A program made the position numbers and the translations under genes. Shown here in pieces: positions 53,943 through 55,016 of a stretch of 64,000 bases of DNA. Within the stretch, counting starts at the first letter, position 1; the number at the start of each line of letters is the position of its first letter. Origin of the DNA: Escherichia phage SholemSchwarzbard; the sequence record PP925840.1; one strand, written 5' to 3'. The notes under the pieces are model-generated. The model saw nothing but the letters and a program-made list of their open reading frames with translations, did not search any database and had not been told where the DNA came from.

Positions 53943-54464
53943 TTATCCTTTCATTGAAGGCGTAACGGTTGTTAAATATTTAATCATAGCTTCAGCTTCT
54001 GATTTTGATAATGAAATTTCTCCATTGTTTTGACGAATAGAAATAAAATCCGGATGACGGTCACCACCAGCTTTTAAAACACACATATAAGTATCAACTT
54101 CGCCTTCAATATTTGAAATGATTGAAGCAGTTCCACATGAATGCGGTTTTTGATAAATCAATACAGCTTTTCTTCCACCATTTGACTGTTCATAGGCTTT
54201 TAATACATCAAGCAAATCAGTTCTTTTATCAATAGCTAAGATGTTATTTTCATCTTCAATATTAAATCCTTCGGATACTTCATAAAGAGTTACCCATAAA
54301 TCACCGATGTCAATAACAGCATTTACTTTTCCACGGCTTTCAAGAGTATGACAAATTTTCTTGATTTCGTCATAACTCATTTTAATAATATCATCTCCTT
54401 GACTAAGGAAGATGTCATTTTTAAATTCAACACGAATTAAACCACTTCCACTTGAAATAAACAT
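53943..54464 (-). CDS. hypothetical protein, 173 aa; paralog of 54471..55016
   Basis: shared motifs (GFNIEDENN / GFNIESES; SKSEAEAMIKYLTTVTPSM / TKDEAIALKTYLDSVIPTM). Confidence 0.7.
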   Translation of the reverse strand: MFISSGSGLIRVEFKNDIFLSQGDDIIKMSYDEIKKICHTLESRGKVNAVIDIGDLWVTLYEVSEGFNIEDENNILAIDKRTDLLDVLKAYEQSNGGRKAVLIYQKPHSCGTASIISNIEGEVDTYMCVLKAGGDRHPDFISIRQNNGEISLSKSEAEAMIKYLTTVTPSMKG

Positions 54465-54470
54465 ATTTCC

Positions 54471-55016
54471 TCACTTTGAAATCATAGTTGGAATGACAGA
54501 ATCAAGATAAGTCTTTAGCGCAATAGCTTCGTCTTTGGTAAATGCGACAATATGTGATCGAAAATCGTCAATTTGACGAATAGTTAAGACATCTCCATCT
54601 TCATAACATTTTGATACGTTTAAAACAGTTTCATCATTCTGATTGCAAGCGTTAGTAATAATAGCATTGCAATTTTTAAACCATTTTAAACTATGTTTTC
54701 TTTCATTAGAATAATAAAAATATTTAATCTTAGTTATAAAATTATCCCAATTATTAATTGATAAGCATATTGACTCGCTTTCAATATTAAATCCTGGGCA
54801 TAAAGAATAGAAATGAATTTTATGCTCATCATTAATGCTTACAATTTTATCAGTATAAGAATTTTCAATTTGGGTTAAACGAACAATTTCGTTAGGCGTA
54901 AAATATAGCATATCGTCTTCTTGTGTCAAACGATACATATTATTTACTTTTTCTATAGCCAATTCACCAAAAAGTGAACTAACTTCTAATACTAATCGTT
55001 TCGCCTCACTCATCAT
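54471..55016 (-). CDS. hypothetical protein, 181 aa; paralog of 53943..54464
   Basis: ORF track; shared motifs with neighbour. Confidence 0.7.
   Translation of the reverse strand: MMSEAKRLVLEVSSLFGELAIEKVNNMYRLTQEDDMLYFTPNEIVRLTQIENSYTDKIVSINDEHKIHFYSLCPGFNIESESICLSINNWDNFITKIKYFYYSNERKHSLKWFKNCNAIITNACNQNDETVLNVSKCYEDGDVLTIRQIDDFRSHIVAFTKDEAIALKTYLDSVIPTMISK

Follow-up and report, generated by a model that had tools for sequence, protein, structure and literature searches.

Two adjacent genes on the minus strand of Escherichia phage SholemSchwarzbard (sequence record PP925840.1, of which a stretch of 64,000 nucleotides, here termed 'the window', was analyzed) are, with near certainty, diverged tandem paralogs belonging to the T4 MobD.1 (or 'Y05I') family in a Tequatrovirus genome. 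The upstream copy (54471-55016) encodes a protein of 181 amino acids (aa) and is an ortholog of mobD.1, as identified by its open reading frame (ORF), its Pfam domains and its match to phrog_1502; the downstream copy (53943-54464) encodes a protein of 173 aa and is a second member of the family, equivalent to the gene RB32ORF097c (hereafter 'ORF097c'), as identified by its ORF, its Pfam domains and BLASTP alignment. Beyond this relationship, we lean slightly toward an overall explanation in which the tandem Y05I paralogs are carried within an early operon and possess a C-terminal domain that binds protein. The window genome is T4-like; its orientation matches that of the T4 record, and its early genes lie on the minus strand.

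Identity and paralogy of the two genes

An earlier note on this stretch of DNA had described two adjacent proteins, of 173 and 181 aa, that share blocks of sequence, and had proposed that they form a paralogous pair. Both ORFs exist exactly as named, and in the ORF listing of the window they lie on the same (minus) strand with a spacer of 6 nucleotides (nt) between them. When aligned with BLASTP, the two proteins match over nearly their full lengths with 48 identities in 176 columns (27%), 52% positives and an E-value of 2e-12, and the blocks that had been quoted fall opposite one another in that alignment (GFNIEDENN with GFNIESES, and SKSEAEAMIKYLTTVTPSM with TKDEAIALKTYLDSVIPTM). The Smith-Waterman score of the pair is 121, as compared to 30.7 +/- 5.0 (maximum 64) for 2000 shuffles, corresponding to a z-score of 18. 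The formal alignment is thus significant, and the paralogy is corroborated by the Pfam and PHROG families that both proteins share.

Those families are matched well above their thresholds. The T4_y05I_N domain (PF24449; gathering score 24.9 bits) is found in the 173-aa protein with an E-value of 1.6e-33 (115.7 bits) and in the 181-aa protein with an E-value of 6.8e-41 (139.4 bits), and the T4_y05I_C domain (PF24448; gathering score 27 bits) is found in the same two proteins with E-values of 1.7e-22 (79.9 bits) and 8.6e-21 (74.5 bits), respectively. Both copies also match phrog_1502 (E=3.6e-80 for the 181-aa protein), and both contain a C-domain signature of the form (S/T)K.EA.A(L/M)..YL..V.P(S/T)M. 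The 181-aa protein is 87% identical to T4 MobD.1 (tblastn) and is encoded at the equivalent genomic position; its counterparts in T4 and RB51 are annotated as mobD.1. The 173-aa protein is 97.7% identical to the copy found in RB32 (tblastn) and approximately 98% identical to the copy found in RB51 (alignment).

The paralogy of mobD.1 and ORF097c is already on the public record, because the RefSeq record of RB51 labels RB32ORF097c as 'similar to mobD.1'; the annotations of RB32, RB51 and RB14 carry the relationship, and two Pfam families (under a name, 'y05I-like putative transcription factor', that spans both copies) and one PHROG capture it. As it stands, the finding is therefore a rediscovery of a recorded relationship and matters little. 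A search of the literature on mobD.1 and y05I found no functional study, and scans against NCBIfam and PADLOC returned no match for either copy.

The product names attached to these genes in public records deserve a separate comment. In the RefSeq records of RB51, PP01, slur07 and others, MobD.1 and MobD.4 bear the name 'molybdopterin-guanine dinucleotide biosynthesis protein MobD', which was rejected as a name collision that lacks Pfam or NCBIfam support ('mob' refers here to the mobile endonuclease region). Other odd product names occur nearby, including 'helicase loader' for an ORF of approximately 60 aa and 'putative SSB protein' or 'integrase and recombinase' for Y05I genes.

Distribution and evolutionary history

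By tblastn, 729 phage records contain a MobD.1-like gene and 482 contain ORF097c (at 80% identity or higher in 433 of the 482), and approximately 430 have the pair; possession of both genes is the normal state of a Tequatrovirus. The family as a whole is restricted to Tevenvirinae phages, and only 29 matches emerged when 1.84 billion representative proteins were searched with a profile. A repetitive match of 1572 aa (P0063) was disregarded, as it resembles the sum of weak matches to its repeats.

T4 itself is atypical at this locus. It has kept MobD.1 and NrdC.11 (the product of a gene further downstream, described below) and has lost both ORF097c and the gene for a small membrane protein that follows it; the slot that these two genes occupy in the window (53494-54464) is taken in T4 by the HNH homing endonuclease gene mobD (4621-5400 of locus L003). 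The mobD segment is found in only 47 records, T4 included, all of them at least 99% identical. The homing target of mobD has been listed as unknown (PMC2988022); because mobD replaces the segment containing ORF097c and the membrane-protein gene, its position suggests that the target lies in or beside those genes in phages that lack mobD. For comparative purposes, T4 is consequently unrepresentative, as it holds a homing endonuclease gene where most Tequatroviruses hold ORF097c and the membrane-protein gene.

Other lineages display further variations. In T2 (2940-4019 of locus L006) neither Y05I copy is whole, each having been broken into short ORFs, and the genes that follow, for the membrane protein and NrdC.11, are undamaged. 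A single full-length copy is present in both Mosigvirus (p000v) and Dhakavirus (JS98). Tegunavirus, together with nine T4-like contigs from IMG/VR, possesses only a stand-alone gene for the C-terminal domain (68-87 aa), and that gene has been independently duplicated in tandem at two loci (L012 and L013, positions 6001-6457 in each, encoding proteins of 78 and 77 aa and of 78 and 76 aa, respectively), where the duplicated genes sit directly upstream of the membrane-protein gene.

In a neighbor-joining tree, the MobD.1 orthologs of Tequatrovirus, Mosigvirus and Dhakavirus group to the exclusion of ORF097c, both for full-length proteins and for the N-terminal domain. The method is rough and the tree is taken as indicative; because ORF097c branches outside the orthologs of all three genera, either the duplication would be old or ORF097c would have evolved fast. 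The ratio of nonsynonymous to synonymous substitution rates (dN/dS) is 0.08-0.19 for ORF097c, 0.23-0.28 for MobD.1 (against RB51 and T4) and 0.02-0.12 for nrdC.11, and both copies of the pair are under purifying selection. A reading in which the similarity between the two proteins reflects chance or composition, or in which one copy is decaying and non-functional, might draw upon the low identity of the pair (27%) and the fragmented copies in T2. That reading is refuted by the alignment statistics (E=2e-12, z=18) and by the selection analysis: both domains exceed their Pfam gathering thresholds in both proteins, dN/dS is well below 1, and both copies are intact in hundreds of records, T2 being the exception. 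Its probability is negligible.

Two natural recombinants illustrate how the pair can be rearranged. Shigella phage SP21535 (2480-3019 of locus L020; protein P0021) carries a single chimeric Y05I gene, which consists of a MobD.1 N-terminal domain and the first ~25 residues of the MobD.1 C-terminal domain, followed by the remainder of the C-terminal domain of ORF097c. The chimera most likely arose by deletion between tandem copies, and its natural occurrence implies that parts of the two copies are interchangeable. In the Tequatrovirus PE37 (3498-4568 of locus L004), a Mosigvirus-type MobD.1 (~52% identical to the window copy) sits beside a Tequatrovirus-type ORF097c (97% identical), which indicates recombination between genera with a breakpoint between the two paralogs.

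Predicted structure and charge

AlphaFold2 models of both proteins predict the same arrangement. For MobD.1 (based on an alignment of 18 sequences) the N-terminal domain is modeled with a predicted local distance difference test score (pLDDT) of ~90 and the C-terminal domain is poorly defined; for ORF097c (based on an alignment of 32 sequences that included stand-alone C-terminal domains) the mean pLDDT is 84.6, with ~90 in the N-terminal domain and 62-89 in the C-terminal domain, by 10-residue block. According to DSSP assignments on these predicted structures, the N-terminal domain of each model consists of four strands and a helix, twice over, and the C-terminal domain, which is the best-conserved part of the Y05I family, is modeled as a sheet of four to five strands and a long helix that bears the family signature. 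Family members are uniformly acidic, with isoelectric points (pI) of 4.2-5.1 and net charges of -7 to -22 for full-length members (-7 in both window proteins and -10 to -22 in the others).

Comparisons of these models with known folds yielded little. Searches of the Protein Data Bank (PDB) using Foldseek and both models found nothing at E<=1e-3 (the best values being 5e-3, for an unrelated dioxygenase, and 0.06), and a search of BFVD with one model found only family members and other uncharacterized phage proteins. A sequence-profile search of PDB chains returned only a chance match (E=0.4). A Pfam scan of 32 family members at E<=10 gave no PurA, Whirly, PC4 or helix-turn-helix (HTH) signal; besides the two Y05I domains it detected a sub-threshold match to DUF7189 (in 12 of the 32, best E=3e-5), a domain that is itself of unknown function. 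When units of the fold were compared with one another using hhalign, unit 1 of the N-terminal domain proved weakly similar to the C-terminal domain (P=7.6e-4, probability 25%), and other pairs of units did not.

The name given to the Pfam families, 'putative transcription factor', implies a reading in which the Y05I proteins are nucleic-acid-binding regulators with a PUR-alpha-, Whirly- or PC4-like fold that recognizes single-stranded DNA or RNA; the two copies might then bind different targets, or might pair as heterodimers via the C-terminal unit, in the manner of PUR repeat III. The predicted topology of both models (beta4-alpha, beta4-alpha, beta(4-5)-alpha) is consistent with such a fold, and the hhalign similarity is suggestive of an internal repeat. 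Weak Foldseek matches include Pur-alpha (3k44; E=0.11, probability 0.69), the Whirly-like MRP1/MRP2 (2gia; E ~0.09-0.15) and SsgA/SsgB (3cm1 and 6slc; E 0.24-0.52, probability 0.75-0.77, template modeling score 0.39-0.42, with a root-mean-square deviation of 3.8 A over 94 columns for 3cm1); both MRP1/2 and SsgA/SsgB have Whirly-like folds. The neighboring protein NrdC.11, moreover, acts on RNA 3' ends (PMC12776372). However, unrelated folds are also found among the same weak matches, no PDB match reaches E<=1e-3, neither the Pfam scan nor the PDB profile search produced a real match to such a fold, and the acidity of the Y05I proteins is opposite to that of known members of the PUR/Whirly-type nucleic-acid-binding folds. 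Because no fold or profile match was obtained and the family is uniformly acidic, the 'transcription factor' label is not adopted here, and the regulator reading is regarded as improbable.

Predicted operon and dispensability

The pair lies in a region that is widely shared among related phages: a megablast search with positions 53400-55200 matched 504 phage records, with the best full-length matches ~95% identical. Immediately upstream, the small gene mobD.2 (55013-55120, minus strand, 35 aa; annotated at the same position in RB51, T4 and T2) overlaps the start of mobD.1 through an ATGA stop/start. Upstream of mobD.2 is an early-promoter-like site (55149-55177, minus strand; GTTTACA, a 17-nt spacer and TATAGT with an upstream TG, for 10 of 12 matches). 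In T4 the early promoter Pe57.9 sits upstream of mobD.2 and mobD.1 (PMC6024815), and the window site is presumably its equivalent, judging by position. Downstream, 6 nt separate the mobD.1 stop from the start of ORF097c, which ends 2 nt before the start of the gene for the small membrane protein (53494-53940, minus strand, 148 aa), which belongs to the RB32ORF096c family (phrog_944; E=1e-43) and has a hydrophobic core at approximately residues 31-101. The stop codon of that gene in turn overlaps (ATGA) the start of nrdC.11 (52487-53497, minus strand, 336 aa), which encodes a Pol-beta nucleotidyltransferase of the RlaP family, as identified by Pfam (PF10127; E=2.6e-11, 44.1 bits against a cutoff of 23) and PHROG (phrog_388; E=2e-136). 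Directly after nrdC.11 comes an intrinsic-terminator-like hairpin and T-run (52467-52484, minus strand; GGGAGCCTTCGGGCTCCC then CTTTTTTATT), and phage SA20RB has a terminator annotated at the equivalent place. Read from sequence features, mobD.2, mobD.1, ORF097c, the membrane-protein gene and nrdC.11 thus make up a predicted, tightly packed early operon that ends at the terminator-like hairpin.

Several features in the surroundings were recorded alongside this arrangement. The ORF that follows (51402-52490, minus strand, 362 aa) over-extends nrdC.10, for its PHROG match begins at residue 41 and its true start lies near 52370; both the terminator (52484-52467) and a second promoter-like site (52433-52405) fall inside the spurious extension. 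Directly upstream of mobD.2 and mobD.1 is a tandem array of three genes on the minus strand, mobD.2a (55181-55354), mobD.3 (55344-55538) and mobD.4 (55541-55744), all of which encode Pfam DUF7438 (PF24219); a fourth copy, tk.2 (57564-57749, minus strand), is found beside tk. The DUF7438 matches of the four genes have E-values of 1e-16 to 1e-19. The earlier note had called the Y05I genes a 'second' paralogous pair, and this array may be the 'first' to which it alluded. Landmarks further upstream include tk (56973-57554), rI.1, rI and rI.-1.

The T4 segment from nrdC.11 to mobD.3 can be deleted and the phage remains viable (PMC9825161), and the genes of the operon are therefore accessory. That deletion, the fragmentation of both copies in T2 and the presence of a single copy in T4 mark mobD.1 and ORF097c as dispensable accessory genes. 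Such a status would also fit a different reading, in which the two genes encode independent inhibitors involved in host takeover or anti-defense within a hyperplastic early region, so that their adjacency reflects collinearity instead of shared function and their duplication and divergence reflect an arms race against different host targets. The Y05I genes are early, small, acidic, non-essential and restricted to one lineage (29 matches among 1.84 billion proteins, in Tevenvirinae); they fall into discrete, strongly diverged allele classes that have been exchanged between genera, as in PE37; copies have been lost, fused or pseudogenized in some lineages; and their surroundings are rich in tandem paralogs, as illustrated by the three adjacent DUF7438 genes. 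Against this, both copies are strongly conserved within Tequatrovirus (dN/dS 0.08-0.28) and are not diversifying, and a stop/start coupling to the membrane-protein gene persists across genera despite changes in the flanking gene content. The absence of a PADLOC match says little either way, since that library contains defense proteins and not phage counter-defense proteins. Independent inhibitors are considered possible, at odds clearly below even.

Linkage to the membrane-protein gene and nrdC.11

The earlier note had also suggested that the pair, together with a downstream membrane protein and nucleotidyltransferase, could form a functional module. The two downstream genes are present as described; the module itself is borne out in part, in that the operon is closely packed and a Y05I gene comes before the membrane-protein gene at every Tevenvirinae locus examined that carries the latter, and is weakened by the fact that its parts also occur separately, so that the link is not obligatory. 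A Y05I-family gene is found immediately upstream of the membrane-protein gene at 16 of the 16 Tevenvirinae loci examined in which the latter is present (L001, L002, L004-L008 and L011-L019), with an overlap or a gap of no more than 10 nt, a spacing that is inapplicable to T2 (L006), where the copies are fragmented. The order of Y05I followed by phrog_944 is seen in four genera plus the nine IMG/VR contigs, with NrdC.11 located further downstream, and the adjacency persists where genes farther upstream and downstream differ. In Tegunavirus and the nine contigs, the stand-alone C-domain gene in every case directly adjoins the membrane-protein gene (by an overlap or a gap of no more than 3 nt). 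In SP21535, the Y05I gene is followed by a gene of membrane-protein length and then by nrdC.11, an order that is assigned by annotation and length. The C-terminal domain is the conserved core of the Y05I proteins and, at the loci examined that carry the membrane-protein gene, is consistently coupled to it.

The membrane-protein gene itself displays a pronounced allelic variability. The window allele is rare, being matched at 95% protein identity or higher in 7 of 912 phage records, with the remainder below 60%; among the Tequatrovirus phages listed, the membrane proteins are 28-38% identical. The flanking genes ORF097c and nrdC.11 remain more than 90% identical where the membrane-protein alleles diverge, which for that reason looks like cassette-style allelic replacement of the membrane-protein ORF alone. 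Across the phrog_944 family, an N-terminal motif (M.I..SWH...LC.YFWK) and a C-terminal motif (KA.K.K.CP.hEF) are kept and the transmembrane core is variable; the invariant histidine and two cysteines in these motifs possibly form a metal site. The protein is basic (pI 9.0).

Under the explanation that we favor, each copy would be a soluble, acidic protein of ~20 kDa that is composed of a two-unit N-terminal domain and a C-terminal sheet-plus-helix domain, and both copies would be transcribed early as part of the operon that extends from mobD.2 to nrdC.11. The C-terminal domain, which exists as a stand-alone gene in other T4-like genera, would be the core functional unit and would most likely work through protein-protein binding; plausible partners would be the conserved, basic cytoplasmic ends of the membrane protein or the RlaP-type enzyme NrdC.11. 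Target specificity would be contributed by the N-terminal domain, and it is this specificity that would have diverged between the two copies. The mechanistic part of this proposal, namely a protein-binding core in the C-terminal domain and specificity in the N-terminal domain, is tentative and rather doubtful.

Several observations weigh against a working partnership of these proteins. T4 retains MobD.1 and NrdC.11 without the membrane protein; in T2, the membrane protein and NrdC.11 persist although neither Y05I gene is intact; and Pakpunavirus and an Aeromonas phage possess the membrane protein but no Y05I gene (a 74-aa ORF situated just before the membrane-protein gene of Aeromonas phage AS-sw was tested as a hidden Y05I_C and is not one). 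In several genera the membrane-protein gene and nrdC.11 are separated by other genes, which belong to PHROGs of unknown function, and both NrdC.11 and the membrane protein have a far broader distribution than Y05I. ORF097c is 92-100% identical across phages in which the membrane-protein alleles are mutually 28-38% identical, and this lack of co-variation speaks against a specific interaction with those parts of the membrane protein that vary. The conserved gene order can be accounted for by the broad collinearity that T4-like genomes show in general, so that order alone is weak evidence. Finally, the Foldseek searches of the PDB and BFVD gave no significant structural match that would assign an activity to the Y05I proteins.

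A more specific proposal concerns the repair of RNA. During RNA repair, the RlaP enzymes of bacteria extend RNA 3' ends by one or two nucleotides, and T4 NrdC.11 has been assigned to RlaP cluster 5 (2025 preprint PMC12776372). In the Pakpunavirus vB_PaeM_B31 (2729-4764 of locus L009), the phrog_944 homolog is preceded by a protein with an HTH_37 domain and followed by an RNA ligase of the Rnl1 type and an AAA_33 (P-loop) kinase, a hint that the phrog_944 family is tied to RNA-repair enzymes in two unrelated phage groups. The Y05I C-terminal domain, phrog_944 and NrdC.11 could represent a conserved module for RNA repair or counter-defense, in which the Y05I proteins serve as acidic adaptors or decoys and the paralogs provide two specificities; such a module might, for example, restore tRNA ends that have been trimmed by anticodon nucleases of the RloC type. 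We consider this a long shot. If the Y05I proteins, the membrane protein and NrdC.11 were nevertheless shown to cooperate, they would provide an initial functional clue to a block of T4 early genes to which no function has been assigned since the genome was sequenced, and one of those neighbors, NrdC.11, is now placed in a biochemically characterized family (RlaP, RNA 3'-end repair).

Comparison with known systems

The predicted order of secondary-structure elements in the Y05I proteins, a repeated pattern of four strands followed by a helix, is that of the PUR-alpha, Whirly, MRP1-2 and SsgB proteins. Proteins of the PUR-alpha/Whirly type bind nucleic acids via basic sheets, whereas the Y05I proteins are acidic and lack a significant structural or sequence match to them.

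Closer relatives are found among the T4-like phages. Both domains of T4 MobD.1 (PF24449 and PF24448, within phrog_1502) are present above the gathering threshold in both window proteins; ORF097c, in contrast, shows no more than 27-29% identity to any MobD.1 ortholog and is without a counterpart in T4. The 173-aa gene of the window is the same gene as RB32ORF097c and RB51ORF104, and sits at the same place, with mobD.1 on one side and the membrane-protein gene on the other. The stand-alone Y05I_C protein (phrog_7763), exemplified by the 74-aa gp119 of Yersinia phage fHe-Yen9-01, shares with the window proteins the C-terminal domain and its signature and differs in lacking the two-unit N-terminal domain; like the window pair, its gene adjoins a phrog_944 gene on the upstream side.

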